64,000 nt of DNA. Origin: Okamejei kenojei (taxonomy: Eukaryota). The notes under the pieces were generated by a model that ran no database searches, had not been told where the DNA came from, and saw only the letters and a program-made list of their open reading frames with translations. The stretch covers positions 29,574,001 to 29,638,000 of the forward strand of contig CM069157.1 of the NCBI GenBank assembly GCA_035221665.1, read 5' to 3'. The position numbers and the translations under genes were made by a program. Shown piece after piece: positions 9,481-50,060 of this stretch (positions are counted from its first letter, which is position 1; the number at the start of each line of letters is the position of its first letter).

Positions 9481-10079
9481 TGGGTCACAATGTCAATCCC
9501 AATCCGAGAAACACCTTTTGTTTTTACCAATCCCTCCCCTGTCCGCCAGAAACTTATTTTCTTTCTTTCCAAATTCCGATGAAGGGTCTTTGACCTGAAA
9601 CATGGGCTATCTCCACAGATACTACCTGACCTGTTAAGTGTTTCCAGCATGTTCTGTTGTTTTTTTTTTTTTTAATTTTGGAGTTCCAGCAGCTGTAGTA
9701 GATTTCCAGGATTTTAAAATGATATGGCCTGGGGCAAGAGGCAGGGCAGAGCATTTCCCTCTCATTGAGTCATCACGAAGACTGTGAATCATGTGCAATA
9801 AATAGATTCCCATGGCAACAAGATCCCTTTGAAGGAAGAAAAGCAACTAAGCAATCAATACTTTGTGAAGGGGAATAGCTGGAATTGAAATGGCGAAGTG
9901 TTGTTCAGCTCAGACGATGTCATCTTATATCTGCATGGATTATTCCTGCTTGTAAATAAGCATAATCCAACTTGCCATGGTTATAACAAGATTCTTGAAA
10001 AAATGTTCATTAGAATATTTAAGTATGGAAATAACCAGGGACAGGAGTAGCATCTTTGAAAGTGTGCAAGAACTTTTAA

Positions 10080-10390
10080 ACAGTAGAGCTGCTGTCTCTC
10101 AGCGCTAAAGTGTCGGGTTCGAGCTTGACGTTGGGTTCGAGCTTGACGTTGGGTGCTCTGTGTGGAGTTTGCATGCTCTCTCTGTGACCACATTTCCTTC
10201 GGGTGCTCCAGTTGCCTCCCTCATCCCAAAGACGTGCGGGTTTGTTGGTAAATTGGCCTCTAAATTGCCCCTTGTGTGTAGGGATGGATGTGAAAGTGGG
10301 CAAACAGTATGTGTGTGAATTGGTGCTCAATGGATGGCTTGGACTCAGTGGGATATGGGGCCAGTTTCCACGCTGTACCTTTCAATTAAA
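10080..10390 (+). mobile_element. tRNA-derived SINE (HE1-like) with a tandem duplication of the B box
   Basis: gtagagctgctg...; the 18-mer gggttcgagcttgacgtt occurs twice (10115-10150); conserved body ggagtttgcatg...ccgggtgctccagtt...taaattgccc. Confidence 0.8.
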
Positions 10391-11499
10391 TCAGTTTGTA
10401 CCACAGGTAACTGAAGAGTGGGCAAACCTGTTTCCAACCTATCCAAGACAGTGGATGATATCAACATCAATATTGAGGAAGAATGCAATAAACAGATGTC
10501 TAACATTTTTTATCATTAATGTTTTATCATCATTAATGTTTAGTGTTTTCTGAGTCATGCGTAACTGTCACTGTATGTCATGTTGTTAAGTGGGTGGAGC
10601 ACCAAGGCAAATTCCTTGTATGTGAATACTTGGCCAATAAACTTACTTATAAAAGTGGAAAAGAACAGGCAAGTAAGCGAGGAAACAACTCACAATCTGA
10701 TCATTTGTCCAGTCTTCAATGTCGTGTATAATGCTGAGGGGAGACAGCTAATGTGTAGTGCTGTTTATAAAATAGGAAATAGTCCATGTTGCTGCTGGGC
10801 AGCCAGCCCAAAATGAATAATGAACATATTATTGTTATTAAAGTTGAGGCACAGAAATGACAATGTTGTGAGGACATTAAGGCTTGTCAGCATTAATTTG
10901 TTATGGTGAGATCAAGTTTGATTGATGGTTGTTTTTCCTAAACCAGAGATTAACATGGAGAATAATCAGATAGCAGAATTGAACTTTGGCTAGATATTTC
11001 ACCAGGCCCACCTTAAGCAAAGGTTTAAAGCCCATGAGAGGCTTGAGTAAGATCAGTGGAAGCAATAGCTATCAGGCTTTGGGAGTTTTAGGAGTGGGGG
11101 CTCCCGTGCTGTGGAGACCTTCGGGATTCAATACAAGGTCCCTTGCTTTTCAGGTTATAGATTAATGACTTGCGTTTTATAACCAGGATTTACCAATAAT
11201 ACTACAATCAACGGTGCAGTTGTTTGTGAGTAAGAAAGTTCTAGGCCACAGGAAGACACCAAAAAAGTAATTAGATGTTGTGCTAAAATGGTCAGGTAAT
11301 TAATCTGGGGAGGGAAAACAAGGATTGGGTATGAATGCATGATACTAAGGAGCATGATGAACTGGGGGTGTGGCAACGTTTTCAGGTCATGACACAAACA
11401 GATAGCCAGTTATGACAGCATACTTACCTTTATTAGAATTAATGGAAGGGAGGGCAGAAATGTTTCCACACATCTCTACCCTACACAGCTTACCCCTTG

Positions 11500-11595
11500 A
11501 TATAACACAAAGTGCAGGAGTAACTCAGCAGGCCAGGCAGCATCCATGAAGGGAATGGGCAGACGACGTTTTGGGTTGGGACCCTTCATCAGACA
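11500..11595 (-). mobile_element. Penelope-derived short element with a hammerhead-like motif
   Basis: Minus strand reads gtCTGATGAagggtcccaacccAAAAcGTC, followed by the family tail gatgctgcctg...gctgagttactcc. Confidence 0.7.
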
Positions 11596-12044
11596 ATAAC
11601 CCAGGGGTGATCCCAGTAGGCCTTGCACAATAGTAAAACAACTCTCTCACGCCTACAAGCAAATACACTGGAATATAGAATAACATACTATTTTTCACTC
11701 AATCGCTTGCTTCACCTGAATATTAGCTTCAGTGACTTGCTTCGAAGCACACTACCTTTTGAAGATCAACGTTACCCACATTGTTGCCATTTAACAAATA
11801 CTCTTCTTCTGTAATGTGCAGCAATGCGGATGATCTCTTATTTTTCTACATTATATTCATTTCGCAACGTTGTCACCCCCTCAGTTTGTCGGTATGACTT
11901 AGAAGTCATCTCACATCTTCCTCTGCACTCATATCCCACCTAGTTTTTTTTATCATTAGCAAATGTGAGAATTTGACTTTTCAACCACCCAGCATTGACA
12001 CAGATAGTGCATAGCTGAGACCCCACTGGTGTTCACCTTCCAGC

Positions 12045-12780
12045 AGGGGCGCCGGGGAGATGGCTGCCCTGCCGGCAGTCTATTTGTATTTTCTTTCTTT
12101 TTGTTATCTTTTAGTGTTAAAAGTTTGTTTTAATGTTCTTCGGTTTGTTTTATGTGGGGGGAGGGGGGAGGGGATCGGGGGAAACTTTTTTTCAAGCTCT
12201 TACCTTCCCGGAGATGTGATCAATTTTCGGATCACATTCTCCGGGCTCTGCGGCCTACCATCGATGGAGCTGGAAGCCTCCTCAGACTGTCGTGAGCCCC
12301 ACCGCGGGCTGCGGACTTAACATCGCAGCTGAACCCTTGCCTGGGATCGCTCCCTCTGGGACCACCGCGGGATCACCATCAAGGGCTCGCAGTCTCGAGT
12401 GAGGCTCCAACGCCGTGGAAGGTTTGACCAGCCCCGCCGCGAGGTTCGATCGCCCGGCGCGGGGGAGCTGACATCCCCCCCGTGATGCGGGAGCTTGATC
12501 GCCTCGACGCGGAGGGCATGAACGCCGCCAGCTACGGGAGTCAAGATCATCCCGTCCACGGGGGCTCGAGGCCCACGACCGAGGAAGAACAAAAGGAAGT
12601 GACTTGAACTTTATTTCACCTTCCATCACAATGAGTGACGGAATCACTGTGGTGGATGTTCACGTTATAATGTGTTTTTTGAGTGATCTGTTGCTTTTAA
12701 TTGTATGACTGACCTGGCCAATGAAATTCCTCGTATGTTACAAAACATACTTGCCAAATAAAGCGTGATTCTGATTCTGT
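12045..12780 (+). mobile_element. GC/CpG-rich non-autonomous retroelement with a LINE-like 3' tail
   Basis: CpG-rich body ending aaataaagcgtgattctgattctg. It shares its architecture and a hairpin with 17546-18365. Confidence 0.65.
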
Positions 12781-13109
12781 TAACGGTAACTTTATTCCCA
12801 CTGTCTAACGAATCATTCTCTATCCATCATCACATTACTCCCGTGTGGGAGGGCGACTGACAAGACTGCAGTTGTTCTCGCCTTTAAAAATAAAACTCCT
12901 ATTTCCTTTAACAGGAAAGAAACTGGGTGAACATAAATGATCTATTTCCTCTGGCAGATTGATAACTAGGGGCATATATTTAAACTAATTAATAAAAAGC
13001 TGAGGAGGAGGGTTGATTAAAAAAATAAATGACACTTAGTACTCAGGGTCTGGAACTCTCTGCCTGATAAGATGCCAGAGGCAATGGTGGAGCTTTGCCA
13101 GAGGCAATG

Positions 13110-15870
13110 GCAAGGCTGCTTTATCAAAGGGAGCTGAGGGAATGCTGTGTTCACAGAGACATGGCTCATCCCCAGCTCCCCAGACTCAGCGGTCCAGTCT
13201 GAAGGGTTCTCCATCCACCGCATGGACCTTACACTGGCATCTGGGAAAGGGAGAGGAGGGGGCGTCTGCCTCATGGTCAACTCTGCGTGGTGCTCAGACG
13301 TGGCAGTCCTGTCCAACTCCTGCTCTCCACACCTCGAACATCTGGCGGTGAAGTGCCGTCCCTTCTACCTTCCGAGGGTATTCACCTCCATCATCCTGAC
13401 CTCGGTCTACATCCCATCCCAGGCAGACGTCCGTCTGGCACTGTAGGAGCTGCATGCTGTGTCAACAAACACCAGACGTCTTACCCCGAGGCATTTGCCA
13501 CCATTGCTGGGGACCTCAATAAGGCAAACCTCAAAGAATCACTCCCCAACTTCAACCAACATGTCTCCTGCTGCACCAGGGGACCAAACACCCTCGACCA
13601 CTGCTACACCACCATCAAGAATGCCTACCACTCTATCCCTCGCCCTCACATCGGTAAATCCGACCATACCGCGGTGCTGCTTCTTCCTGCCTACAGGCAG
13701 CAATTAAAGAGCGCACCCCCAGAGGTGAGGACAGTACAGAGCTGGTCGGGGGGGGGGGGGGGGGGGGGGGGGCGGGGAGCAAAGGAACAACTACAGGACT
13801 GTTTGGAGTCTGTAGACTGGGCAATGTTCAAGGACTCGGCAACGGGCTTGAACGAATACGCCACAGTCGTTACAGACTTCATTAAAAAAATGTGTAGAGG
13901 ACTGCATCCCCACAAAAACCTTCCGAGTGTTTCCCAATCAGACACCTTGGATCAACTTTGAGATCCGCACTCTTCGGAAGACCAGACATCGAGCATTCAT
14001 GTCTGATGATACAGTGGTCTACAAGAAGTCCTGATACGACCTTGGTAAGGCCATCAAAAAGGCCAAAAGGGACTTCTGCTCCAAGCTGGAGGATGAGACA
14101 GATGCTCGGCAGCTGTGGCAGGGCCTGAATTCAATCACCTCCTACAAGGCGAAATCAGGAGGCAGCTCGAATGTCGGCGAAACATTACTCCCTGATGAGC
14201 TCAATGCGTTTTTCGCACGCTTTGATAGGGAGAACACCGATGTGCCTTCCCAAGCCCCCATTCGCTGTGATAGCATTTCAGTCTCAGTCACAGAGGGCAA
14301 CGTCAGAAAATCCTTCAGAAGGGTGAACCCTCGAAAAGCGCCTGGACCTGATGGTATACCTGGTCGTGTTCTAAAAACCTATGCGGACCAACTGGCTGGA
14401 GTTTTTACGGACATTTTCAACCTCTCACTTCTGAGGTCTGAGGTTCCCACCTGCTTCAAAAGGGCATCAATTATACTAGTGCCGATGAAGAGCAAGGTGA
14501 CGTGCCTCAATGACTATCGACCTGTGGCACTAACGCCTGTGGTGATGAAGTGCTTCGAGAGGTTGATCATGGTGAAAATCAACTCCTACCTCGACAAAAA
14601 CCTAGACCCACTGCAGTCCGCTTACCGCCACAACAGATCAACGGTGGATGCAATCTCGCTGGCCCTCCACTCCGCTCTGGACCACTTGGACAACAAAAAC
14701 TCATGTCAGGCTGGTATTCATCGATTACAGCTCGGCATTTAATACTATCATCCCCTCCAAGCTGGTTACCAAACTCGTAGAACTGGGTCTCTGCGCATCC
14801 CTCTGCAACTGGATCCTCGACTTCCTCATTCACAGACCACAGTCTGTTTGTATTGGTGGAAATGTGTCAGACTCGATAACAATCAGCATGGGAGCACCTC
14901 AAGGCTGCGTGCTCAGCCCCCTGTTGTACTCACTCTATACTCATGACTGCGTAGCCGGTCATAGTGCAAACTCCATCATCAGGTTCGCTGACGACACCAC
15001 TGTTGTAGGACGTATCACTGATGGGGATGAGTTGGAGTATAGAAGAGAGATCGAGCGACTGTCCATATGGTGCCAGCACAATAACCTGGCCCTCAACACC
15101 AGCAAAACCAAGGAACTGATTATGGACTTTGGAAGGAGTAGGATGGGGACCCACAGTCCCGTTTATATCAACGGTTCGATGGTTGAAAGGGTCAAGAGCT
15201 TCAAATTCCTGGGCGTGCACATCTCTGAAGATCTTTCTTGGTCCGAGAACACTGATGCAATTATCAAGAAAGCACATCAACGCCTTTACTTCCTGAGAAG
15301 ATTACAGAGAGTTGGTCTGTCAAGGAGGACTCTCTCTAACTTCTACAGGTGCACAGTAGAGAGCATGCTGACCGGTTGCATCGAGGCTTGTTTCGACAAC
15401 TTGAGCGCCCTGGAGAGGAAAAGACTACAAAAAGTAGTAAGCACTGGCCAGTCCATCATCGGCTCTGACCTTCCTTCCATCGAGGGGATTTATCGCAGTC
15501 GCTGCCTCAAAAAGGCTGGCAGTATCATTAAGAACCCACACCATCCTGGCCACACACTCATCTCCCTGCTACCTTCAGGTAGAAGGTACAGGAGCCTGAA
15601 GACTGCAATGACCAGGTTCAGGAATAGCTACTTCCCCACAGCCATCAGGCTATTTAACCTAGCTCAGACAAAACTCTGAACATTAATAACCCTTTCTGTT
15701 ATTTGCACTTTATCAGTTTATTTATTCATGTTTGTATATATTTATAGAACGGTATATGGACACACTGATCTGTTTTGTAGTAAATGCCTACTATGTTCTG
15801 TTGTGCTGAAGCAAAGCAAGAATTTCATTGTCCTATCAGGGACATGACAATAAACTCACTTGAACTTGAG
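13110..15870 (+). mobile_element. Rex1/Babar-like non-LTR retrotransposon, 5'-truncated and frameshifted (APE endonuclease + RT)
   Basis: APE motifs FTETWL, GGGVCL, AGDLN, TLDHCY, SDH. RT motifs [36 protein letters not shown]. Contains in-frame stops and frameshifts; 3' end aataaactcacttgaacttga. Inserted into an older CR1 remnant (about 12900-13090 and 15870-16020). Confidence 0.9.
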
Positions 15871-16434
15871 CGACACATTTTGAAAAGGTACCTGGTTGAA
15901 CACCTGTGAGGACCTCAACCTACACATCTATGACCAGAGAGCTGGTAAACGGGAGCAACCCAATAGTTCAATTTTTGGCCAGCATCAACACAGTGGGACA
16001 AATGGCCACTCCAGTGTGACAAGGTTTTTATGAAAATATTGTTACTCACAGTCACTCACTTATTTTCTGGTCCTGACTTTGTATGGGGTTATCTTGGAGT
16101 GACTAAGTGTAAAAGGCCTGTTTGGAATTTGACAGAATTCACAGTTCAAAGACAAATGAGGCATGGCTTTTTATAAGGGTAGAGGAAAACAGGAATCAAA
16201 TGTTCTTTTCTCGCCAAGATGACACATCTCTTGCTGACCATGTGAAAGCACAGTGTCAGTTACGGTTACAGCAACAGATGGGCAAGAGAAGTGCTCAAGA
16301 GGAACTTTGATCCAAAGATTAAAGTATGTGATGGTGATGGCGACGTAAAGAAGGAACGGGAAGTCTGAAGCTTGATAGGCTTGAGTGTGGGGGAGGCAGG
16401 TATGAAGCAATGCTTTACTGAACGGCAGACCTAC

Positions 16435-16554
16435 CACGTAGCGATGATGGAGCTCAATGAATCCAACACTTCAGTTGCTGTCAGCCTTTGCTGTGGATCC
16501 AGAAGTAACAACTTCTGAATCAAACAAACTGTGTTTTCTGATACACGGCAGTCT
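16435..16554 (-). CDS. STK40: STK40 coding exon 8
   Basis: (E)DCRVSENTVCLIQKLLLLDPQQRLTATEVLDSLSSIIAT(W); acceptor ctttgacag, donor GTAGGT; 120 nt. Confidence 0.96.
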
Positions 16555-17364
16555 CTGTCAAAGAGGAAAGATATAAAATAATTAATATTGCTGAACGGCA
16601 CCTTTACAAAAACACTCTGAGCCTACAACATTATGCCAGCTGCACAATAAAAGTCTTGAATCTATTTGACACAAAGCTATGTAAACCATGAGTCATATAG
16701 CAGCACACCCAATACCTTAGGCATAACACAAGCAACGAAACCAGTGAGTAATGCTCACATAAAATCCACCTCCCAAAATAAAACTAATCCGACAGATCTG
16801 AGCTGCAGCAACACTCAAAAACAAACACTGGCGAGATCAATGTTATATTGTTAATGGAAACTAATTCTCCAACGAAAAATGTTATTCTTTGCAAAGCAAT
16901 TTATGCAATATGAACAGGGCTGAAAAGGAAGCTTTGGACAACTTTGAAATTCTGTTAAATGTACCACAGCATCAAACACTCGTTTAAAACATTGAGGGAG
17001 TTTAAAACATACTCAACTGAATATAGATTGGTGACATTTTGGATGGGGACAGTTTTTCAGGCTTATGGGGGGAGGGGGGTTTGGAGGGGAGAGCAAAAAA
17101 AAAAGCTGGAAGAGATGAGGGGCAGGACAAAGCACGGCAGGTAATAGGTGAACACAGACGAGGACCATCAGAGCTCTCCAGATACAGAATCCAAAGATTC
17201 ACCACCCTTTCAGTGAAGACATTTATCCTCATCTCAGTTCTAAATGGGAAATCCCTTAATCACTAGCCCAAAACCCCAAGGTTAGGGATACATCCTCCAC
17301 CCACTTTTCTCAAGATGTGCAAGAACTTTGTAGGTTTCAAGAAGATCACCTAAACGCATGCAAA

Positions 17365-17540
17365 AAAAGGCCACAAAGGGCTGGAGCACCTCAGCAGGCC
17401 AGGAAACATCTCTAGGGAACATGGATAGGTGACGTTTCGGGTCTGAGGAAGGGTCAGCTGATCTATGTTCTCCATATCTATGTGACCCGCTGAGTTCCTC
17501 CTGCACTGACGTTTGGAAAAGCAGCATCTGCAGTTCCTTG
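17365..17540. mobile_element. Penelope-derived short element with inverted halves
   Basis: gctggagcacctcagcagg...ggtgacgtttcgggtc followed by tgacccgctgagttcctcc...gcatctgcagttcct. Confidence 0.65.
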
Positions 17541-17545
17541 CATAA

Positions 17546-18365
17546 GTGGGCGGCGCGACCCACGTCGCAGCAGCCTCTGCAGTCCGTCTGTCTTTTTTTA
17601 TTTTTATTGTCTCGTTTGAGTGTAGTTATAGTGTTTTTTTTAAACTGGGTATGTGTGGGGGGGTGGGGAAACTTGAAAAAATATTTTCCCTGTACGGAGG
17701 ACCCGACCTTTTCTCTGCCGGGTCTCTGTTGTCGTTGGGGCCTAGAACCGTGGAGCGGCCTCCAACCGGAACGACCTGGGGCTCCAGTTGTGGAGCCTGC
17801 GGACTACTTACTGGCCAAGTTCGGAACGGGAGGAGCTGTGGTGGCGCGCTACTGCGTCCCGACCCTGGAGATTCGGAGGCTCCAGCCGCCGGCCCAGTGG
17901 ACGGTGACATCGGGAGATCGTGGGTCCCTGGTGGGATACCGCTTTTCGGAGCATCCGCAACGGCAACTTCCCCCGCCCGAGTTGCGGGGTTGAAGATGAC
18001 CTGGAGCGGGGTCTTACATCGCCCGGCGCGGCTTTAATGGCCGCGGGACTTGCTAGCGCTAGCCGGGGGGCTCCAACATCAAAACCTGGAGTGCGGCATT
18101 GCATCACCCGGCTCGGCTTTAATAGCCGCACGACTTATTTACCATCGCCCGCCGGGGGGCTTTGACTTTGACATCGGGAGGAGAATGGGGAGAGCAGGGG
18201 AGAGATAAGACTTTGCCTTCCATCACAGTGAGGAGGAGATTCGCTGTGATGGATGTTTGTGTCAATTGTCTTGTGTCTTGGTTCTTTTTATTGTTTGTAT
18301 GACTGCAGAAAACAAATTTCATTTGAACTTCAATGAGGTTCGAATGACAACAAATACATTTCCAA
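17546..18365 (+). mobile_element. GC/CpG-rich non-autonomous retroelement related to 12045-12780
   Basis: Same order of parts: GC-rich head, T-rich tract, G-run, CpG-rich body, ccttccatcaca..tga hairpin, gtatgact...aaatt tail. Confidence 0.65.
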
Positions 18366-18369
18366 ATCA

Positions 18370-19505
18370 TTAATATATATTGTAATAGCTGGGGTCTGAG
18401 CCTTGCGGTACCCCACTAGTCACTGCCTGCCATTCTGAAAAGGACCCGTTTACTCCTACCCTTTGCTTCCTGTTTGCCAGCCAGTTCTCTATCCACATCA
18501 ATACTGAACCCCCAATACCGTGTGCTTTAAGAGATTAGTATACAAACTTAAAGCACACGGTATTGGGGGGGTTCAGTATGACACTAAGCTGGGGGGTAGT
18601 GTTAGGTGTGAGGAAGATGCTAGGAGGCTGCAAGGTGACGGATAGGCTAGGTAAGTGGGCAAATGCATGGCAGATGCAGTATAATGTGGATAAATGTGAG
18701 GTTATCCACTTTGGTGGCAAAAATAGGAGGGTAGGTTATCTTAATGGTGGCAAATTAGGAAAAGGGGAGAGGCAACGAGAACTGGGTGTCATGGTACATC
18801 AATCATTGAAAGTAAGCATGCAGGTGCAGCAGGCAGTGAAGAAAGCAAATGGTATGTTAGCATTCAAAGCAAAAGGATTTGAGTATAGGAGCAGGGAGGT
18901 TCTACTGCAGTTGTACAGGGTTTTGGTGAGACCACACCTGGAGTATTGCGTACAGTTTTGGTCTTCAAATCTGAGAAAATACATTCTTACCATAGAGGGG
19001 GTACAGAGAAGGTTCACCAGACTGATTCCTGGGATGCCAGCACTTTCATTTGAGAAAAGACTGGATAGACTTGGCTTGTACTCGCTAGAATTTAGAAGAC
19101 TGAGGGGGGATCTTATAGAAACTTACAAAATTCTTAAGGGGTTGGATAGGCTAGATGCAGGAAGATTGTTTCCGATGTTGGGGAGGTCCATAACAAGGGC
19201 TCACAGTCTAAGGATAAGGGGGAATTCCTTTAGGACCGAGATGAGGAAAACATTTTTCACATAGAGAGTGGTGAGTCTCTGGAATTATCTGCCACAGAAG
19301 GTAGTTGAGGCCAGTTCATTGGCTATATTTAAGAGGGAGTTAGATGTGGCCCTTGTGGCTAAAGGGATCAGGGGGTATGGAGAAAAGGATACCGAGTTGG
19401 ATGATCAGCCATGATCATATTGAATGGCGGTGCAGGTTCGAAGGGCCGAATGACCTACTCCTGCACCTATTTTCTATGTTTCTATGTATTGTATTGTATT
19501 GTACT
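18370..19505 (+). mobile_element. CR1 LINE 3' portion with an inverted 5' segment
   Basis: Minus-strand ORF-track label notwithstanding, the ORF at 18563..19264 (+) reads WQMQYNVDKCEVIHFG...LVRPHLEYCVQFW...LRGDLIETYKILKG, the CR1 RT C-terminus. Tail is (tttctatg)2(tattg)n. Bases 18370-18531 are CR1 sequence in minus orientation. Confidence 0.9.
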
Positions 19506-20429
19506 CTAGAAAATGGAGCTTAGCATATTTCTCCTTATATCATTGATCTCCCATCCCCAAAACAAATCTGGTTAGTTTTGTTGCACTCCCTCAAAAGTAA
19601 ATACATGCTTGATTGGATGAGACTACTCAGACTGTGCTCTCAGTAAGACTATTCCAGCTATGATCCCAGTAAGGTTCCATACAACAATAGTGCAATATCT
19701 TCACTGTTGTGCTCAAATCCTCTTGCAATAAAGCCCATGCATCACATGCATGTGGCATCAGCCTGCAAGCTTTCAGTGATTTATTAGAGGAACATCCAGA
19801 CCTCTTTGAACATCAACATTCTCCAATTTATTAACATTTAAAAATTACTTTGTGTTCTGTTTCTACTAGTGGATAATATCCTATTGATCCACATGGGACT
19901 CCATTTATCCACTCACTCAGTTCAGCTTTTTGTCCTTCACAGCAAAATTATAAATAATTAGAGATCAAAGTACCTATCCTTATGATATCACATTGTCACA
20001 GGCTGCCAATCCGGGAAAGACCTATTTACTCCTAGTTTTATTTAACCTGTTGACCAACTCTTGGTCCACTTAAGCAAACTACTCCCAGTTTCATATGCTT
20101 TAACTTTGATCCTCACCCCTTCTCCTGTTTTTGAAGGAAACGGGGCTTATTCCAGTGCCCTGCTTGCCTGCCTGCCCTGAGCCACATTGCCTGTGGCAGC
20201 AGACCCACTCGAGTAGTCTTTTGTTGGGAGCCCATTAGTACAGCACAGTTGACTGTGATAGGACTGATGTCTCGACACAGGAGCCTCACTAGACTCTCTA
20301 GATTTACCAGCAATCAAAGCTGCCAATGTGGCCAGAGCTATTCAACTTATGTAACATTTGAGTAACACCGGGAAAGTCTTGTTTTAAAAAATATTTTCAA
20401 ATAGTATAAAAAATACCCATGTATACAAT

Positions 20430-20900
20430 TTAAAATATAGAACATAGAACATCACAGCCCCTCACCCCCAAGATTTGTGCCGAAAATGATGCCTGGTTAC
20501 ACTGATCTTATCTGCCTGTACTTGATCCATATCCCTCTATTCCTTGCACATCCGCGTTCCTATCCAAAAGCCTCAAATGCCACTATCGTATCTGCCGCCA
20601 TCATCACCGCTGGCAATGTGTTCCAGGCCCCCACTACTTTGTAAACAAAAAAAACTAGCCCCGCACATCTGCATTAAACATTCCCCCTCTCACGTTATAG
20701 CTATGTCCTCTAATGTTGGACATTTCCACCGGGAATATGGTTCACTGTCTACGACTCATAGTTTTATATACCGGTACTTCCATCAAGTCTCCCCTCTACC
20801 TCTCTTGCTCCAGAAAAAACCCAATAAATTCCACCTAAAACAAATGTCTATCCAATCTCTTCTTGCAGTTGAGACCCTCTAACCAAGGCAGCATTCCGGT
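20430..20900 (-). mobile_element. Decayed CR1 3' fragment
   Basis: atagaacatagaac tail and ccatatccctctattcc...tatccaaaagcctc, typical of reverse-oriented CR1 3' ends seen elsewhere in this window. Confidence 0.6.
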
Positions 20901-21249: not shown

Positions 21250-21420
21250 TGCGAAGGAATGGGCGACGTTTCGGGTCGAGTCCCTTCTTCAGTCTGAAGA
21301 AGGTTCTCAACTCGAAACGTCACCCATTCCTTCACTCCATAGATGCTGCCTCACCCGCTGAGTTTCTCCAGCATTGTTGTCTACCTTCTATTGTTCCAGC
21401 ATCTGCAGTTCCTTTTTTAA
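21250..21420. mobile_element. Penelope-derived short element with back-to-back hammerhead motifs
   Basis: An 81-bp imperfect palindrome (21253-21333) centred on 21293; each arm carries CTGAAGA..GAAACGTC. Confidence 0.8.
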
Positions 21421-37949: not shown

Positions 37950-39365
37950 CTTGGCTGTGCTCCTTCTTGGTTTGGGCACAAACTGAAGAGCAGAGCTCCA
38001 GCAGTGAAGACCATGTCAGGGAAGGCAGTGGAACAACTGCGATTACTTAGAGTTGGAAGACTGGGTGATGTTCCAGGAGGCGGCCACTGACATCAACAAA
38101 TACACCATGGTTATCTCCGACTTCACTGGGAAGTGTGCGGTAAAGTGTTCCCGCCAAATCAATGAGCGTTCCCCAACCAAAAATCTTGAATGAACTAAGA
38201 AGTTAGCAATCTTCTGAAGATCAGATCTCGGGCACTGAAGTCTGGCTATGCAGGTTCATACAGGAAGTTCATGTAAAGCTATCAGAAAGGCAAAAATACA
38301 TTTTTGCTCTAAATTGGAGGATGAGGCATCCTCTAATTTCAGCAGCCATGGTGGAGCTTGCATGCCATCACTTCCTACAACTGGAAACCGCATGGCAGCT
38401 CAGGTGAAAGTGAGGCATCACTCCTGATGAACTCAATGCATTCTATGACACTCGGAAAGGATAAACACTGATGTGGCTTCTCGGGCCCCATAGCATAGTA
38501 ATCTCAGTCACCGAAGCCGACATACAAAGATCCTTCATGTGGACGAATCCGCAGAAAGTGCCTGGACCCAATGATGTACCTTGCCGCATTCTCGCTTCCT
38601 GCATGAACAATCTAGCAAGAATTTTTGCAGACATCTTCAACCTCTATTGAGGTCTGAGGTTCCCACCTGCTTTAAAAAGGCATCAGTAATACTGGTGCCC
38701 AAGAATAACAAGGTGATAAGCCACAATGACTATCAACTGGTGACATTGACATCTGTGGTGAAAAATGCTTTGAGGCTCGTTAATGGCACATATCAGCTCC
38801 TACCTTAGCAAGAACTTGGACCACTTAGACAATAAGAACACTTACATCAGGCTCTTGTTTATTGACAACAACTCGGCATTCAACACCATCACTCCTTCCA
38901 AACCCGTTATAAAGCTCAGAACTGGGTGTCTGCACATTCCTATGCAATTGGATCGTTGGCTTCCCCAACAGACCATAATTGGTACGAATTGACAACACTT
39001 CCTCCTCAATCACCATTGCACGGGAGCACCTCAAGGCAGCATCATCAAGGACCCACACCAACCCAGCCACGCTTTAATTTCACTCCGACTATGGGGACGT
39101 GGTCTTGGAGTCTGAAAATCGTGACCCCCCAGATTCAAGAACAGCTTCTTCCCAACACCATCAGGCTCAACAACAGTACAAACTATGAACTGTCACAGTC
39201 GCACTATAGATTCAGGCTTTTGGCACGAATACTGGAAATTTTAATTTACTTAATTCTTTGTTTATAATGTTATGAGTACTGTTTGCAGGTCTGTTATGCC
39301 GCTGCAAAAAATAATTTTATTGTTCCCTTATCTGTACATGTTAACAATTAAACACTCCTGACTCA
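37950..39365 (+). mobile_element. Older Rex1/Babar-like LINE copy, heavily deleted
   Basis: RSEVPTCFKKASVILVPK..NDYQLVTLT and IRLLFIDNNSAFNTITPSK; collinear with 13700-15860. Confidence 0.82.
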
Positions 39366-40024
39366 TACCCAACAACATCTGCCAACCCGACAATTGGTTT
39401 TCTAAAATGTTTCCAATTCATAAACGTAGGAGCCATGTATGTACACACTGCCCAAAATGTCCTTCATATACTATTCATTGTTGCATTGATCACTTTATTC
39501 TAAGAGGCATTATATAGTTATATGGCTTTCATATTATACCTCATCCAAATTTCTGAAATGCTGTTTGCCTCAAAAATGACACATCACGGGTTGCAAGTCC
39601 TAAATGCAGCAACAGTATCCTGGTCCCTGAGTGTAACAATGAAGTGTTGCAAGTAAAAATGCTGGGTTGGTGTTGGCTGAAACTTCTTTGAAGTTAACTT
39701 TATGTCCAGGAGTATTGTCAACGGAGGAGGGTCCTTACCCACTTTAAACTTTACACAATATTGTTCAATAAAAAGAAACAAAATAATGTGACCGTGGGAG
39801 AGCTGGGGCAACACACCAGGAGTTTTGATAGATTTCCAGGTCATTAAAGAATGGTCATTAAATCTATCCTGCGACTCAGCAGATTCTACAAATAAAAGAT
39901 TAATAGCGATTCAACTTCAGTCATTATCTGAAAGCAGAAAAACAAAGTGATGTTTAGCTGACGAAGCCTTGAGCAGCTTTAACATCCTTTGCGATAAACA
40001 ATGGTGAGGATATCCGGCCATCAG

Positions 40025-40340
40025 CAGGGGCGCAGTGGTAGAGTTGCTGCCTGACCTAACCAGAGTTCAGGGTTCGATCCCGACTATCCCGATCCGAGTG
40101 CTGTCAGTACGGAGTTTGTACGTTCTCCCTGTGACTGTGTGGGTTTTCTCCGGGTGCTCCGGTTTCCTCCCACACTCCAAAGATGTACAGGTTTGTAGGC
40201 TAATTGGCTTTGGTAGAAAAATTGTAAATTGTCCCCAGTGTGTAGGACAGTGCTAGCGTAGGGGGAGACTGCTGACCGACGTGGACTCGGCGGGTCGAAG
40301 GGCCTGTTTCCACAATGTATCTTTAAAAGTCTAAAAGTCA
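40025..40340 (+). mobile_element. tRNA-derived SINE (HE1-like)
   Basis: ggcgcagtggtagagttgctgcct...gggttcgatccc; ccgggtgctccggtttcctcccacactccaaaga. Confidence 0.88.
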
Positions 40341-40899
40341 AAAGAGCCCCAGCTCATTTACATCGAATGTTTCAGAGACTATTTTCTGCCACCATATTTC
40401 TTGTATTTACTGCCTCCCTGCAAGGTGATTATGCAGGTTTCTCATTCTCCAAACATATTAAAAATGAGCCACGGCTGGCCTCGAAGATTCCAGCATTTAC
40501 AGCAGACTCATCACCCTACTCCTTGTCCTGCCAAAATGATCACTCATTTTCCTGGACCATTATCAAACTCAGCATGTGTCCCTAATCTTCTCACTACACA
40601 CTTAACACTTTCCCCATTCTTTCCATTACAATCTGATGTAACATACAATCCACCTCCAGCTGTAACGGTTTGGGTAGTACATTTATTTTATCTACATTAA
40701 AGATTGTTCATTGATACAGGAGGATTTAATTGATGGCCAATGTCTGAACATTCACCTGTTTTAACTTTCATTAAATGTATACACTTTACTAATAGATATA
40801 GCTTGCCATAATTGCTTGGGGGACCTGTAATATTTACTACTGCTAGACAGCTTTCACACAAACCTATTTTGCACAAAATAATGCCATATAACAACAGCA

Positions 40900-41730
40900 A
40901 TCTCCAAGATGGTAATATGGAACATGGAGAATATGGTGCTTACGCTCTGGTGAAAAATAACTTGGTAACTTGATCACAAGTACAAATGGCAATGGAATTA
41001 TAGTGGAAATTAAACTTTTTAAGTGAAGGAATTACAGGAATGCATTGATTAGGACCATTCCTCAATTAACATGTTCCAGTAAGGAGGAGGGATAAAGATG
41101 GTAAAGTAAGGATACCTTGAATCACCAAAGTGGTTGTAAATTTGGACCAGACTAATTATAAAATTGGTATCAGACAGGGCCTTTGCGTAATATATAGAAA
41201 GGAGGAAAGAACTCATGTGAGCGATATGGAGGGCTAAAGGGGCCTCAAAATGACTTGTGAGTCGGCATAAAGAAATTCCCAAAGTTTATTAAAACAAGAG
41301 AATAACCAGAGAGAAGGTAGGACACAAGGATAAATGAGGGAAGAAGGCTGGTGGGGGTGGAGGCGAGGTATTATACTTTCCATCTGTTTTCACCAAGGAC
41401 ATGGAGGTCAGTGAGATCAGGGGGAATACCTGCAAGGACAGTTAGAGATAAAGGAGGAGATAGTGTTGTGAATTTAAGTGCATGAACGTAGATAAATCTG
41501 CAGGAGCTGATGGGAAACATCCCAGGTTATTGAGAAGGAAGGGTAAGAGACGAGACTGTGGGAGACTTGACTCATATTTTTGTGTCTGCTCTAACAACAG
41601 GTGAGGTCACAGAGAACTGGATAGTAGCTAATTTTATTCCTTTAAGAAGGGAAGTAAAGTGAATCCATGGAATTATTGGCCGGTGAGCCTTACGTCAGTG
41701 GTAGGGAAGCTACGGGAGAGGATTCTTCGA
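40900..41730 (+). mobile_element. Old decayed CR1 fragment
   Basis: tctgttttcaccaagga..., gataaatctgcaggagctgatgg, tttaagaagggaagtaaag..aattattggccggtgagccttacgtcagtggtagggaagc (a KKG..NYRPVSLTSVVGK-like region). Confidence 0.65.
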
Positions 41731-44700
41731 CCCACACACTTGAGTTTGCTCAAAACATGTCCAACTTCATTACTCCAAACTTCTCTTTTGGACTGGGATT
41801 CAGGTTACTTGTGCTAATCTCACATCAGCTCATCAAATTTTGCCAATGAAACTTACTGAAGAATCCTGGAGTGTTTAATTATATACAAGACACTATAAAT
41901 ACATATTGTTACAAAGTGACTTTTCAAGATGAATAGGTGAGCAAAGTGGAAAATGTAGGCAGAAGCGTCCATAGTGCAAGAGGTAGCTGAAGTTTCTGTC
42001 ATTCGATGAGGGCTTGGAAACTGAGGATAAGATGGAAAAAGTAGAAGACACCACTTTGGGAGAGGGAAACAATGCCAAAGAGCATTTCTAAATCAGGAGG
42101 ATGATGATCCTGAAATCAACATGTTGAGAACAGGATCTTATTCTCCTTAGGCATTCATCCAGGACTGAGAATCATTTACTTCTGATGTGAGTAATGAGAC
42201 CAATGTGCCAATGACAGATGGAGCAGATGGTGAAAGGAAATCAGAAAAGGAAAGAAAATGTACTAAAAGATGGTAACCAAACATGTTTTAAGCTTTAGAA
42301 AAGTGTGAAGGGTGGCAAGAACAAACGAAATGTCTGCAGTGTGGAGAAGAGCCAGGACGACAAAATGTTTGAACAGGCAATCTGCTGGAGGAACTCAGCA
42401 GTTCATGCAACATCTGTGGGCAGGGAGTGAAAGAGGAATTATCAATTGTAAATGTTAAATAAAAACCCCGAATCAAAGATATGCGGAGAGGGAATATTTA
42501 GCCAGTATAACAAGAAGAGGGGAAGTACTGAGACCGGGCCAGTAGGAGGGGAGGGTGAAAGTAGAGGTAGCTAGGTAGTTAAGCAGGAACACAAAGACGA
42601 CCAGTGATGCAACTTGATAAGTAAGGAAATTCATAGTGAGAACTTTTAGGGGAGCAGCAAATGGTACATAAAACCCAAAGTTGGCGAGGAAGGAGCAGCG
42701 GAGCCAGTTAGTGAAATGCATGTGAAGGAGGTGGATAGAACCAAGATGCAGAGAGAAATGAAAAAAAGGAGTGGGTGTGAGAAAGTAAGAGAGGAAAGAG
42801 TAGAAATATGTATGCTTTCATATTTCCCTCACTTCAAGAACAAGAATGCAAATGTAGAATGTTTTTTTGTCTCTAATCTTTCTCACTTTACTCCACATAA
42901 GTGCAAAACATTCTGCAAAGAGTCTTTAATCTGGTGACTCTTGCACAGCCCATTTACGTTAATATATTTGGAACAGCATTCATTAACTGAAAACAGTAAA
43001 TAATGCAAGTTAAATAGAATGCTTTCACATTGAAAGTCTAGTTTGCTGGAACTTTGCTAACCAACATTTGAGAGCTGGCATTTTGGATATTAGGTACATG
43101 TCAAACAACAGTTTTTATAACACATTGTAAAGAAGCAGTATTTGCAGAAATTCAAAGATTCAGCATTAAGCCAATGTTCCACTTCAGAAATTGGCTGCTT
43201 CCAACACACCATTAAAAACTTTAAGTTCCCTATTCACAAAATAAATCCATTGGGAACATTTTAATTACCAGGCCAGATGAAAGACAGAATCAAAACCAAT
43301 GCAGAAAAAATTGGAGAAAATTAAAATTCACCCATGAAATTTTATAGATGCTTCAATTATAAAATGTGAATAACATTTTTTTTTTAAACCCAGACACATA
43401 ATGACCACTTTGGAAAATGCTGGCATAATAGATGTGCTTTTGGGATCCATCCAGATTCAAGAGTTTAAATCCCACCAAGGCAGCTGAGGAATTTAAAGTA
43501 GCTAAATATGGAGTTAAATACCTGGCAGCAGCAATGATAACCCCAAAACTTCCTTTAGAGAAGATTTTTTTTAAATCTGGTCTGGCCTCTTGAATAAGTT
43601 CCAGTAATGCAGTTAATTCAAACTGCCTCTGAAAATACCTTGGAAACCATCCAATTTAATGACAATTAAGGATGACATATATAAACTTTGCAAATACTGG
43701 TCACAGTTTAAAATAATTTTTAGAATCCATTCATATCGGTTGTAGTCACGGGTGTAGTCCAAGCTGTGCATTCTGGAGTACTGATGATTATGGATATAGA
43801 GCCTTCCACAGGTATAGAGCCTCCATGCGAAAGAGAATCAGTAATCATAATCTTATACTATCTTACCCTACTGACACCAGTCCTATATTACACACAAGAT
43901 ATATTTTGTTAGATGCTTGCGATTGAAGGATAAACTTTATCCAACATATACACCAACATGTTAAAGCAGGAGACCAGCATCTACCAAATATTATCTGAGC
44001 ATCAACGCTGCAAGTACCTGGTAACCCTCATTAGGAGAATTGCATTGCTAGAAAAATGTATTGTGATCTTCCGCAAAATCATATTTGTCATTGAATTCCA
44101 TGTACAAGTAGGGATGTGTTCCTATGGGATGATATTCTCTTGTGTGGAAGATCACCTAAGAGATTGTCTTGTCAGATTGCAAAGCAAATCTCTCACAGCT
44201 GCATTTGAAGACACGAGTAAGTAACTGCAGGTGCTCATCACCTTACAGCCTTCAGTTGGAATAGGGACATACACTTTTAAATGCATGTCAGAACAGTGGT
44301 TGTTTAGGCGTACAGCTTGCACTTAAACTTGCTGGCGCTGTTTCAAACATCGTAAGCATAAATAACATGGGACAAAACTGTTAAACAAAGTGAACCTATC
44401 ATTCTAAAATAAACCCACATTATGAGTGCATTCTTCAAGTAGAAAGTTAAAAAGTACAAAAATGAAATGTTTGCTTTGCATTTTTCCCCACAGAATTTTG
44501 GGTAGTGATTGGTGACTTTCCATAACACGAACAGCTTTAAAGTGGGGGTTTGCCTGCATTACTTTGCACCATGCCCAGACGACCAATGTATTGCAACATT
44601 TTCTATGAGAGGAGAAATTTACTGAACTATTCTACACTGTTTTTTCCAAATATCTCCAACCCCACCCAAAGGCTGGAATAGGTAGGTTAAAATTACGAAG

Positions 44701-45169
44701 GAACTGAACCCACAGATGGCTGTAATTAAATATGATTCACCTTTGAGCACAATAGTAACTTGCACCAAATATAGAGCATTGGCCTTAAGCTAAATTCATA
44801 TTTCCACAAGATTCTGGTACAGATGGGAAATTGAGGAATAATTTACGAGAAATTTCAGAGAACCTGTATTAGATTACACCATCTAAAATATGCACATACG
44901 TGCCATAGACTAATCAAGAGGAAAAATAACTAGATCTACTCCCTCCACCTATTTATATGTGTTTTTGCAGTTAAAAAATGCACTGCTGATCCATGTGAGT
45001 TAGTTACGATACGATAGAACTTTATTTGTCCCAGGAGGGAAATTACATGATAAATCAAGAGGCAATGGCAATGCGAGTACCATAGTAAACTAACGTTAGT
45101 AAATAAACAAAGTTAGTTACTTTTGTAAGTGTATTTTGCCCACTTACTTGCCTATCTGTCCACTGCCTA

Positions 45170-46090
45170 TCTAACACATTGCCTCATTTGTACCATGGAC
45201 ATCCAGTCCCTTTACACCTCCACCCCCGACCTGAAGGCCCTCCAGTTCTTCCTGAACCAGAGACCTAATCAGATTCCCCCGATTAACACTCTACTTTGCT
45301 TGGTGGAATTTGTTCTCAGCCTCAACAACTACTCGGATTTCTCTCACTTTCTTCAAGTTAAATATGTTGTTATGGGCACTTGCATGGGTCCCAGCTATAT
45401 CTGACTTTTTGTTGGTTATCTCGAACAGTCCTTGTACAAAAGTACATTGGCACCATCCCCCAACACTTTCTCCACTACATTGCTGACTGCATTGGGCTAC
45501 CTCCAGCACCCGTGCAGAACTCAATGATATATTTAATTTTATCACTAACTTTCACCCTGCACTCAAGTTCACTTGGACTATCTGACAACAAGCTCCCATT
45601 TCTTGATCTGTCTCCATCACGGCGGTGAGACTATCCACTGATGTCTACCAACTCCCAGTTATCTGGGCTCCACCTCTTCCCACCCGGCCTCTTGCAAAGA
45701 CGCTATCTCCTATTCTCAAATTCTCAGTTCCTGCCACATCTGCTCCCACAATGAGGCTATCCCGTCTAAGACATCCAAGATGTCCTCTTTCTTTAGTAAA
45801 AATGGATTCCCCTGCTCTCATAGATGGAACACTCACCAGTGTCTCCTGTGTCCTGTAGTTCTCCTCTCCCTCCCAGATATAACATGATAAGAGTTCCCAT
45901 GGTCCTCATCTTTCATCCGACCAGCCTCCATATTCAACACATCATCCTCCGACATTCCTGCCACCTTCAACGCAATCACACCACCACCCAGTTGAAGAAG
46001 GGTCTCGAGCCACAATGTCCCCCATCCATATTTTCCAGAGATGCTGCCTGACCTGCTCAGTTACTCCAGCAGTTTGTGTCTTATTTTGTA
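45170..46090 (+). mobile_element. Penelope-like element (PLE): decayed RT fragment plus terminal repeat
   Basis: TMDIQSLYTS, FLQVKYVVMGTCMGPSY, LFVGYLEQSL, YIADCIG and LPFLDLS match PLE RT motifs (MDV.SLYT; GVAMG..MGPSYA; YIDD; LPFLD). It ends in the gaagaagggtctcga...gatgctgcctgacctgctcagttactccagc terminal repeat. Confidence 0.82.
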
Positions 46091-46373
46091 TCTTCAAGGT
46101 AGGTTTAATTGGCAAACAAATCAAAACTATATATTTTTTAAATTAAAGAGATAAACAGAAAAAGCTTAAGCAGAAAACAGTAAATATTTAGAATTTCTGC
46201 ACACATGGACTTTCCAAAAAATTGATTCAACAATACATGCCAAACATGAAAATGTTTGAGGCACCCAGACAAACTCCACATCAAATCCAAATCAAACAAT
46301 GGGATGTGCATGAAGCCAGAGTTACAAGAGAAGGGCGCAGAATTTATAACATGCACGCAATTCATTTAAGGTT

Positions 46374-46670
46374 GAAGGTAGACACAAAACGCTGGAATAA
46401 CTCAGGACAGACAGTATCTCTGGAGAGAAGGAATGGGTGACCTTGAAGAAGGGCCTCGACCCGAAAAGTTCAGTCTGAAGAAGGGTCTCGACCCAAAACG
46501 TTACCCATTCCTTCTCTCCAGAGATCACACCACCAGCCAGTTGAAGAAGGGTCTCGAGCCACAATGTCACCCATCCATATTTTGCAGAGATGCTGCCTGT
46601 CCCACTGAGTTACTCCAGTATTTTGTGTCTACCTTCGATTTAAACCAGCATCTGCAGTTCTTTCCTACAC
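46374..46670. mobile_element. Composite Penelope-derived insertion with tandem hammerhead-like units and a 14-bp TSD
   Basis: Flanked by attcatttaaggtt at 46360-46373 and 46671-46684; contains three TGAAGAAGGG.CTCGA units. Confidence 0.82.
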
Positions 46671-48549
46671 ATTCATTTAAGGTTCATTGTTTCCAGATAC
46701 ATAGACTACAAAATTTACAACTTAAAAAAGAATATTCATGTATGCATGCAAGATGGGGAGAATTCACACACACACACTGAACTTTGTTTAAATAGGTCAG
46801 CAAATTCTCTCTTGGGGGCGAATGCGGGGGAAGGGAACAGTTTGGACAGGAAGGAAAGAACTAGACGTAATTACATCACTCAGTGCAGTCACATTTTAGT
46901 CACTATTTGTTTCACATTTAAAACAAAGTGAAACATTATACCGAGCCATAGATTCTAGGTTTGATCAATGGGTGATGCAGATGAGTCATGTAGTGGAGCT
47001 ATCAGAATAGGTCCATTTCCTCCGATAATAAGATGGCAGTACTACCACACAAGCTCCCTGATCACATAACCTTGATCCAAGCAGCCATGGGGTTTAACAC
47101 AATCACTGGATTATTACTCCACATCTCTACACCCACGCTGCTCTTTCTCCCAACCTCACAACACCAACTCCATTCCATTAAGTATCCATTGTTTAGAGGC
47201 AGCCCAGAAAAAAAAACACTGTTAAATACTTTTTCTGTGATGTCAATGCCACTTATAGTTTTAATAACTACATTGAGGGGTAGGAGATAGGGAAATGGAG
47301 ACAATATATACCGATAAGTGTGGTATTAAAATTGATTTTCAACAACGAACAGCCAAATGTCACCGTGTTGGACCTACTTTCTTTAGAGCAAGCATTTTTC
47401 CAAAGTTAATTTAAATTTCACACTTTCCAGATTAAAAATAAATCTTTAATTGCCTTCAGAAGGGGGACAGAGATCCCATGTTGTTATTCAGTTAACTAAA
47501 AATAATAGATTACCGCTCTTTCAGATATACTCCACCACTTCAAAGTTTCCATCAGTAAAAGTAGAACTTTGGGGAAAATCCAAGCAGTCAGGGGACAGAG
47601 AGGGAGTAAAGAAAGTAAAATAACAGGAAACATTTCCCAGCAAAGAGCTCAGTCTGAAGACATTGTTTGTCTACATCAAAGTCACGGAGTCACATTCAGT
47701 GTGTGAACTGCTTTGAAATATTTCAACAAGGCTTTGACAGGAAGCTTCAAGTTCATGGGCCCACCCAAAAAAACCACAGCAGAAATATGTTTGACAAAAT
47801 TTGCTGTGTCAAGAAAAAAAAAAGTGCATTACTGGGGGGAACAAGGCAAATCATTGTTGGGAACAGGACCTTTCTACTTTTATACCAAAGAATCTTCAAA
47901 GTTTTAATGGAAATAAATCAAAGCAATAATTCAATTCCGGGCCCAGAAGACCATCCTGAAGCCCTTGTAGCTATTCCTGACATACCTCTGGCTGTTGGTG
48001 CTACACATGCACTGAGGAATAGTATGAGCCAGAAGTCTTGTTGACAACTATGGTCATGTCTGCCAACACTTTTGCATAAGGAGTTTCCTTATCAAAGCAC
48101 TAGCAAACAAGAACGGGCATCTAATTGCTCATCTTCTGATCAGCTTGTTGGCAATATCACCAATTCTACCAAGACACACTGCTGAGATTGGCAGCAAAAA
48201 TCTGAAACAGAGCACTTGGTGTCTGAGATAGGTGGGAGCATGCATTTGGTGTTCATAGTGCCACAAATGTTACCAGTTAATAAGTTCCTGGTTTCCCCAT
48301 CTCAGGCACTTTGCCGAGACGGAATCCTGTCGTTAATTAATACGAGCCATACCATATTTTTCAAATAGTCCTGTTGGCTATGTTGCAATTTTCCTTAACT
48401 TAATGCCGATGATCTAAGCATGCAACAAGAAACCAGAGTTGGGAAAAGTGTTTATATATCTTTTTTACCCCCCACATAAAGTTTGTAAGAGCTAATGTGT
48501 TTAGTCTGTATCTCAGATTTATGCATAGTGAATTCTGTAAGGGTGAATT

Positions 48550-48920
48550 TCCATTACGCAAACAGCCAAGAGAGACTAAATAGTTTGGGCCTTTATCCCT
48601 TTGAGTTTAGAAGATGGAGGGCTGACTTTGTTCAAACACGAGGGAGGTGTTTTACTAGTGAAGTAGACTCGAACAAGGGGCAGATCCTTTAAAAATGTTT
48701 ATTGAAATTTATTTTCACAGGAGGAGTGAATATCTGGAATGTTCTGTCCCAGCAGGTGATGCACCAGAAGTATTTGAAGTCGAGGTGGATAAATGTTCGA
48801 CAGGCCGAGGAACAGAAGAACAATGGGAAATGGTACAGAAGAGGAGTCAAGTTTACCACTGATCGGCTAGGAACAGATTAAATGGTGGGGCAGACTTGAA
48901 GGCCAACCTTGTGTTCTCGT
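48550..48920 (+). mobile_element. Old CR1 3' remnant
   Basis: QERLNSLGLYPFEFRRWRADFVQT resembles CR1 ERL..LGLYSLEFRR.RGDLIET. Confidence 0.65.
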
Positions 48921-49609
48921 GTACACTGCAACAAGAGATTCTCACTTCGATCCCAACTTGCTTAAATTAATCTCGACATTGAGAACTCGGATTACTTCCC
49001 TTTCCCTCACAGCAATAATGTACACACAGTGCGCATAGGACATTCACGAACACTTTATCAAAAATTACAAAGTATGAGCAGGCCTTGTCATATTACACAC
49101 TTTACTCAACATGAATCACAAAAATATGGTTTCATCAAATTACATTGTCTGTTTATAATGAATACTGGAAGAGACACGCCCTTTGGATGACAACATAAAC
49201 TTTAACCTTACAACTTCCTCATTAAAGCAGCACTCCCTTTTCCCGACTTTCTCCAGCCTCTCGCTACATACAAGAATGCAAATCAGTAACCTGCAATTGC
49301 ACTCTGACAATTCATGTTTTTAGTGCTTTCTTCCAGGATCCAACCCCCCCCCCCCCACCATGATCAGTCCGAAGGGAAATGACCAAACATCATCTATCCA
49401 TGTTTTCCAGGGATGTTGCCTGACCCACGGAGTTACTCCAGCACTTAACCTTTTTTGTAAATCAGTATTTGCAATTACTTGCGTCGAGACGTTTTTAAAT
49501 TCATGCTTTCAAAAGATCACTTGCATGCTTCAATACTAAGATTTTTAATGAAGCATTACTAAATTAAAATGGTTTGCATTAACCCATTTAAATGGTTGTG
49601 GTTAGAAGC

Positions 49610-50060
49610 AAAGTAACACAGTGGGCATCACTGTGGTGCAACTATAGAGCTGTTACCTCATCGCGCCAGACCTCAGGTGCGGTCTGTGTGGAGTTTATAC
49701 TCACTCCCTGTGACTGTGTGGGTTTCCTCAAATGCTCCAGTTTCCTCCCATATCCCAAAGACATGCAGGTTTGTAGGCCAATTGGTCTCTGTAAATTGCC
49801 ACAAGTGTGCAAGGAGTGGACGCAAAATGGGGCAACACAGAACTAACGTGGGTACACAAAATGCTGGAGAAACTCAGCGGGTGCAGCAGCATCTATGGAG
49901 CGAAGGAGATAGGCAACGTTTCGGGCCGAAATCCTTCTTCAGACCCTTCTTCTTCAGCATTTTGCGTACTCTCGATTTTCCAGCAACTGCAGTTCCTTCT
50001 TTAACATAGAACTAACGTGAACAGGTGGTTTTGGTGGCCAAGGGACACTTCCATGCCCTC
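49610..50060 (+). mobile_element. tRNA-derived SINE interrupted by a Penelope-derived insertion (49851-50002)
   Basis: SINE body gtgtggagttt...ctccagtttcctcccatatcccaaagac. The insertion is flanked by the 17-bp duplication aaca(c/t)agaactaacgtg (49834-49850 and 50003-50019). Confidence 0.82.

Follow-up and report, generated by a model that had tools for sequence, protein, structure and literature searches.

Hammerhead ribozymes at the ends of Penelope-like elements (PLEs) are already known. Dispersed single motifs from truncated PLEs were described in 2014 at up to 9,000 per genome (PMC4209133), and up to 120,000 canonical motifs are reported for the axolotl (PMC7229834). Neptune and Poseidon are the vertebrate PLE clades reported. 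In the Poseidon element of Anolis carolinensis (PAc), reverse transcriptase (RT) initiates internally, at two sites bounding the tail, on uncut RNA, and the ribozyme is protein-dependent and dispensable in vitro (PMC11167929). The terminal repeat (pseudo-long terminal repeat, pLTR) of Drosophila virilis Penelope has an internal TATA-less promoter (PMC2377424), and an initiator-like TCACT lies in a rotifer pLTR (PMC3846280). Here we describe a family of short hammerhead-bearing repeats in the skate Okamejei kenojei, which offers in vivo statistics on the role of such motifs. The starting point was a window of 64,000 nucleotides (the whole stretch analysed; G000:C27:29574001-29638000), which contains the host gene STK40 and lies in a genome of 2.76 Gb. 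No account of the family was found in the literature searched on sharks, skates and rays; it may be catalogued in Repbase, Dfam or preprint supplements.

The repeat is the terminal repeat of an endonuclease-bearing (EN+) PLE of about 3.8 kb and forms the first ~130 nt of the 5' untranslated region (UTR) of that element. Most of the short copies are probably run-off cDNAs whose template was an uncut RNA, with priming close to the 5' end of that RNA, within this terminal repeat. The repeats are ordinary in kind; what stands out is their abundance and the clustering of their 5' ends at the motif edge, the latter being the one unusual trait of the family.

The search profile for the repeat was built from 172 genomic copies. 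Positions are numbered with core base C3 as 0, and the predicted cleavage site lies between +27 and +28. Abundance was assessed in 100 stretches of 10 kb at chosen round coordinates on contigs C1-C35 (999,500 non-N bases). This sample holds 458 segments in 340 insertions, which extrapolates to ~0.9 million insertions in the genome. Pattern counts over the whole genome gave 48,215 matches to the exact 28-nt core and 80,316 to the structurally intact motif (core, paired stem II and palindrome), with a reversed-pattern control of 0 in both cases. Single segments make up 252 of the 340 sampled insertions and simple head-to-head pairs another 63; 34 of the 458 segments stand head to tail behind another copy, and 184 have an inverted neighbour upstream. 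Per Mb there are ~330 repeat segments against 1-2 copies of the RT region and 0-1 of the 5' part of the open reading frame (ORF). An origin of the solo repeats by pLTR-pLTR recombination was rejected on these last figures, and it could not give rise to the hairpins. The long tandem arrays seen in the 1-Mb sample lack the CUGA box. A 61-bp minisatellite derived from repeat positions +20..+80, likewise without the CUGA box, reaches up to 8 units at the unlinked loci L100, L214, L216 and L227.

The assignment to an EN+ PLE rests on the long copies. The repeat lies ~100 nt past the ORF stop in 29 of 30 of them, and among 20 long loci three partial tandems (L193, L192 and L194) carry it at both ends of a unit of ~3.5-3.8 kb. 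The ORF starts ~163 nt downstream of C3, after the 5' repeat; since that repeat continues into the ORF at about +163, it is the start of the 5' UTR. The predicted protein contains an RT with YIDD, a CX4CxxC linker (in P0001) and, at its C terminus, the GIY-YIG domain, the Pfam matches (GIY-YIG, E 4.5e-4; RVT_1, E 0.062) both falling below the curated cut-off of that database. A frame of 1,197 aa is open in 2 of 98 scored copies, which points to recent activity of the family. A single RT/GIY-YIG ORF, partial tandems, inverted truncated copies, a tail and target-site duplications (TSDs), all traits of EN+ PLEs, are present, as is the CX2-5CxxC linker between RT and endonuclease that marks Neptune and Nematis. 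The copies fall into 7 sequence subfamilies, by a clustering that rests on ~80 columns and is coarse, and each subfamily has copies that enter the element's 3' UTR (1 to 13 members). The short copies have no private sequence at all, and a PLE ORF lies within 900 nt upstream in 20 of 168 edge-reaching copies. An earlier note on the window, made from the letters alone, had proposed a Penelope origin, which the ORF-adjoining copies and the partial tandems bear out. It had also proposed a non-autonomous, retrozyme-like family. Neither a retrozyme-like nor a separate non-autonomous family is supported, given the lack of any sequence of its own, the UTR-linked members in all subfamilies, the few head-to-tail segments and the arrays without CUGA.

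The 3' UTRs are ~100 to 240 nt long and subfamily-specific, and all finish in a pyrimidine tract and CAG before the motif, as at window positions 30744-30790 (-); the end of the D. virilis Penelope intron may be compared. At L092 and L334 short copies lie within older PLE ORFs, one of them with a 14-bp TSD. At L257 a piece resembling the element's +220..+270 stands directly before the motif at -5, a permuted junction in a single case identified by eye.

The 3' ends of the short copies cluster near +95-100 and +122-125, the stretch between the two being the optional tail of PLEs; 181 host-flanked solo copies divide into 83 short, 85 long and 13 other, and 45 of 84 hairpins combine one long with one short 3' end. 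Flanking TSDs of 10-17 bp were found for 30 of the 98 solo insertions and for 25 of the 62 hairpins, versus 3 and 3 with a mismatched-flank control, and four of the window insertions are TSD-flanked. The 5' ends do not form a smooth gradient: the 216 solo copies comprise 63 that stop between +4 and +82, 105 that stop at the motif edge (within ~12 nt) and 48 that run on into the 3' UTR. Thus 105 of the 153 solo copies that reach the motif halt at its 5' edge, a stop rate 22x background. In 103 host-flanked copies, element bases are kept at -1 in 76%, at -2 in 70% and at -3 in 68%; retention is 42-47% at -4 to -6 and at background further upstream. Of the 102 insertions examined for TSD-defined 5' ends, 23 yielded one, and 18 of these fall within -6..+2. 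Starts around the cleavage site (+25..+31) are few, with 6 among the 181 host-flanked copies. Internal deletions end at the motif edge in 5 of 30 cases against 0.7 expected; at least one of the 5 is a short copy with its own TSD inside an old ORF, and the deletions are therefore no independent support.

These two 3' ends, the TSDs, the 5' cluster at -6..+2 and the identity with the element ends are what the run-off explanation is drawn from. Element RNA would start close to -3 or at it, where an initiator-like TCAGT lies. The element protein would nick AT-rich DNA and prime at +97 or +125, the two 3' ends being read as RT start sites by analogy with Poseidon of Anolis. Priming inside the 3' repeat would give ordinary full or truncated copies, and priming inside the 5' repeat a run-off after 100-130 nt. 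Hairpins would be two such primed cDNAs joined head to head. The template is presumed uncut, as in Anolis, and the hammerhead would be of consequence in the master element alone, probably as a dimer assisted by protein. By eye, the sequence at the expected spacing from -3 does not fit a downstream promoter element.

Several observations weigh against this account. The 5' boundary is spread over ~8 nt and does not fall on one base. Of the 84 copies with an intact core taken from C1:0-3 Mb, 43 enter the 3' UTR and only 15 are host-flanked; about half of the copies of the youngest subfamily continue upstream, and the share that runs on differs among subfamilies (p=0.023). Genome-wide, a C stands at -4 in 27,125 of the 32,931 exact cores preceded by AGT (82%), which makes the step at -3 a weak one among young copies. 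Stem I has just 2 bp, and the predicted fold of the hammerhead dimer reaches -12.7 kcal/mol without stem I, against -19.7 for a rival fold. Lastly, D. virilis transcription begins 46 nt before an intron that ends at the hammerhead (PMC2377424), an arrangement that would place the start upstream and not at the motif.

The main rival, as we rank it, is ordinary 5' truncation combined with a strong stall where the pyrimidine-rich UTR begins. RT would prime in the 3' repeat and drop off at this UTR or at a bound protein, and the 5' cluster would then say nothing about transcription start. The staggered 5' truncation of the long copies, the run-on of half of the young intact-core copies and the pyrimidine tract in every upstream UTR suit this explanation, as does the fact that known PLE insertions are mostly 5'-truncated with one terminal repeat. 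Yet RT would have to stop beyond stem II, which it has already unwound, at a site that stays constant while subfamily UTRs differ in sequence and length, and at 22 times the background rate; we consider it unlikely. A true non-autonomous family resembling short interspersed elements (SINEs), with short masters transcribed independently and mobilised in trans by PLE protein, would account for the near-fixed 5' end, the TSDs and the excess of repeat segments over RT-region copies. Precedents are pLTR sequences able to act in trans in a rotifer (PMC3846280) and non-autonomous PLE derivatives in Chlamydomonas (PMC8557442). Its probability is nevertheless low: no private body exists, UTR-linked members occur in 7/7 of the coarse subfamilies, and hairpin arms differ in length from copy to copy and so were not copied from a single master.

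Processing could instead create the RNA 5' end, at the 3' splice-site-like CAG ahead of the motif, as in the D. virilis intron, which occupies the same position (PMC4209133). A pyrimidine tract with CAG at -4..-2 is found in all upstream families seen, and in some subfamilies a donor-like GT site coincides with the stop of the ORF. This site is absent from the youngest subfamily, however; the joined form was matched only twice in the genome (L251 and L252, probably one duplicated event), and -2 and -3 are still kept in ~70% of host-flanked copies. We rate splicing slightly below the SINE-like alternative. Replication as a non-LTR retrozyme, through ribozyme-cut circular RNA, is highly improbable. 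Retrozymes reportedly descend from PLE pLTRs and occur in one sampled cartilaginous fish (bioRxiv 10.64898/2026.07.22.740005), but the skate copies are dispersed as single segments and head-to-head pairs, their motif is minimal rather than canonical, and their ends are unpermuted and do not lie at the cleavage site.

Returning to run-off copying of uncut RNA, a wider claim can be framed, on which we regard the odds as even: that PLEs yield a second class of product by design, an internal RT start in the 5' repeat giving a 100-130-nt run-off that ends at the RNA start. About 1 million stubs would then mark, in vivo, where transcription begins and where RT starts at its two sites, show the template to be uncut, and have seeded the 80,000 intact cores. 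If the cluster is the transcription start, SINE-like stubs are explained without a SINE master. The scarcity of starts at the cleavage site and their abundance just ahead of the motif agree with the uncut template found in vitro for Anolis. The intact cores are also numerous enough for a strand-bias test within genes, for selection against sense-strand intronic ribozymes.

The motif comprises CUGANGA, an extra base before a stem II of 4 bp, G10.1-C11.1, GAAA, a palindrome in place of helix III, and the NUH site. This matches the minimal type I anatomy and the consensus described in the earlier note, except for its loop, which is mostly CTCG or CCCG, TTCG being confined to one subfamily. Helix I is short, with only two pairs (-1/+28 and -2/+29) and A-C at the third position in 158 scored copies, where minimal PLE hammerheads have 4-5 bp. 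The Rfam scan found no hammerhead in the window, nor on 8 loci with perfect cores, so the blank for the window is uninformative.

Of 258 core-spanning segments in the sample, 87 have the core bases unchanged; stem II is kept as well in 56 of these, and the palindrome too in 37. The catalytic G12, which lies within a CpG, is lost in 51 of 198 copies. In ten non-CpG core columns, 207 of 2,927 cells are substituted (7.1%), as compared with 1,057 of 13,315 (7.9%) in 34 invariant downstream columns (p=0.12). The earlier expectation that the core would be conserved above its flank thus fails at copy level. A first test that favoured the core (7.7% against 12.7% in the tail, p=6e-10) had included subfamily-variable columns and gaps, and its effect disappeared on invariant columns. 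The covariation expected in stem II did not appear either: no double changes above decay were found among copies, while one motif variant holds its pairs through G-U. Individual copies decay neutrally. Between subfamilies the majority base differs at 1 of 11 positions in the core and 1 of 8 in stem II (CpG decay), versus 22 of 68 downstream, and this near-fixed core and stem II suggests constraint on master elements, though promoter function or protein binding might account for it as well. Between body and optional tail lies a domain closed by a conserved 8-bp pairing of about +47..+54 with +102..+110, without covariation. This pairing may position both RT start sites.

The features of the window are as follows.

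3270..62150 (ends approximate), minus strand: STK40 host gene, with exons near 62118, 58571 and 56799 and at 55095-55325
Near 52717, 34939, 25722, 16502, 8495 and 3450, minus strand: further STK40 coding exons
9571..9699, plus strand: old solo copy, core damaged (U4 and G12 lost)
11503..11596, minus strand: solo copy on the sense strand of STK40, with its motif at 11592-11565 and A in place of G12
17364..17540, no single strand: head-to-head pair, neither arm with a whole core
21248..21415, no single strand: head-to-head pair, cores 21292-21265 (-) and 21294-21321 (+) with core bases kept and stem II mismatched
24200..24403, no single strand: decayed head-to-head pair, possible 8-bp TSD 24192-24199 / 24404-24411
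25933..26025, plus strand: copy without CUGA box, inverted tail piece in front
30644..30743, minus strand: copy on the STK40 sense strand, running on upstream into PLE 3' UTR
31829..32005, no single strand: head-to-head pair lacking the core, flanked by an 11-bp TSD (31818-31828 / 32006-32016; one mismatch)
42373..42419, minus strand: fragment of the repeat's 3' half, from the profile search
45170..45985, plus strand: broken fragment of a PLE reverse transcriptase, 70-74% identical in DNA to 39 further copies in the genome
45986..46088, plus strand: terminal repeat of the RT fragment, core damaged
46374..46670, no single strand: composite insertion of one inverted arm followed by direct pieces, perfect 14-bp TSD 46360-46373 / 46671-46684
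49361..49480, plus strand: old solo copy, core deleted in part
49851..50002, minus strand: copy on the sense strand of STK40, with a tail piece in inverted orientation and a 17-bp TSD (49834-49850 / 50003-50019; one mismatch)

One window exon matches human STK40 (E 1.5e-36), and as the coding exons span from ~62118 to 3270 on the minus strand, every repeat copy is intronic. The profile search returned 19 segments that merge into 13 insertions, with a unit of 100-130 nt, and 0 matches on reversed sequence. All twelve copies listed in the earlier note are among them, and the fragment at 42373-42419 had been missed. The strands are unbiased (10 plus, 9 minus), and the density of 0.30 segments/kb lies below the sample mean of 0.46, so there is no enrichment in STK40. 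Of 12 core-covering segments, 4 keep the 11 core bases and H17, and none keeps core, stem II and palindrome together; the substitutions noted in every copy, and the doubt as to present activity, were thus well placed. The four motifs assigned to the STK40 pre-mRNA strand do lie there (11592-11565, 21292-21265, 30738-30711 and ~49942-49915). Whole core boxes on that strand remain in 3 copies, in three introns 9-19 kb apart, each with a defective stem: 21292-21265 has stem II mismatches, and on the minus strand the arms at 21248..21415 form a single long hairpin (-85 kcal/mol, predicted fold) in which the core is buried; at 30738-30711 core and stem II are in place and the palindrome is broken; and ~49942-49915 keeps core and palindrome with a mismatch in stem II. 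Ribozyme activity of the sense-strand copies is, to judge by these defects, improbable. The STK40 copies are likely inert passengers and give no pointer to a function for STK40.

The link to an autonomous partner, which the earlier note had drawn through the RT fragment at 45170..45985, holds through the other genomic copies and not through that fragment, whose junction with the repeat, at motif position -4, spans a gap of ~610 nt, the endonuclease part and 3' UTR being missing in between. The right arm of the composite insertion (46524-46630) is 92% identical to 45975-46081, 550 bp upstream, and the likeness includes the RT-to-motif junction and private changes; it would fit either local gene conversion or a template jump at insertion. 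Elsewhere in the window, a near-perfect hairpin at 18494-18585 with arms of ~40 bp gives weak matches to miRNA models, far below gathering scores, and is possibly an element resembling miniature inverted-repeat transposable elements. A second abundant short repeat family (D1-D3, D8-D11), presumably SINE-like, extends across 7296-63113. Remnants of reverse transcriptase from long interspersed elements (LINEs) lie at 13203-15679, 18539-19264 and 35574-36236.

Among described systems, the non-LTR retrozymes (PMC7229834; bioRxiv 10.64898/2026.07.22.740005) likewise have a type I hammerhead within a short repeat that is non-coding and related to a PLE pLTR. They are tandem units of 150-450 bp expressed as circles, with canonical motifs in the 2020 definition (PMC7229834), whereas the skate copies are dispersed, minimal and TSD-flanked; neither tandem hammerhead units, in the 1-Mb sample, nor a canonical motif with helix III and loop-loop contacts was found. 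PAc (PMC11167929) is similar in its hammerhead at the 5' end, AT-rich targets, uncut RNA template and two 3' ends ~30 nt apart, 100-130 nt downstream. Its ORF starts in stem II, while that of the skate element lies ~163 nt downstream, and it belongs to a different clade; the clustered 5' ends seen here are not described in the available text of that account. The Neptune and Nematis EN+ PLEs (PMC8557442) have the same RT, CX2-5CxxC linker and C-terminal GIY-YIG, a likeness read from domain layout, together with partial tandems, inverted truncated copies and an optional tail of 30-40 nt. Unlike them, the skate element has very frequent repeat-only insertions with clustered 5' ends. The minimal hammerheads of metazoan PLEs (PMC4209133) share the core boxes, the extra base between 9 and 10.1, G10.1-C11.1 and the palindrome replacing helix III, and most of them are likewise dispersed single pieces of truncated PLEs. 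The skate motif differs in its helix II of 4 bp and helix I of 2 bp, the latter found also in D. virilis, in its 80,316 intact copies against ~4,000 for the coelacanth and ~9,000 for Xenopus, and in having one dominant sequence where many are reported in that study. The family is real and is one of the EN+ PLEs; apart from its short helix I, the motif conforms to the minimal hammerhead class.

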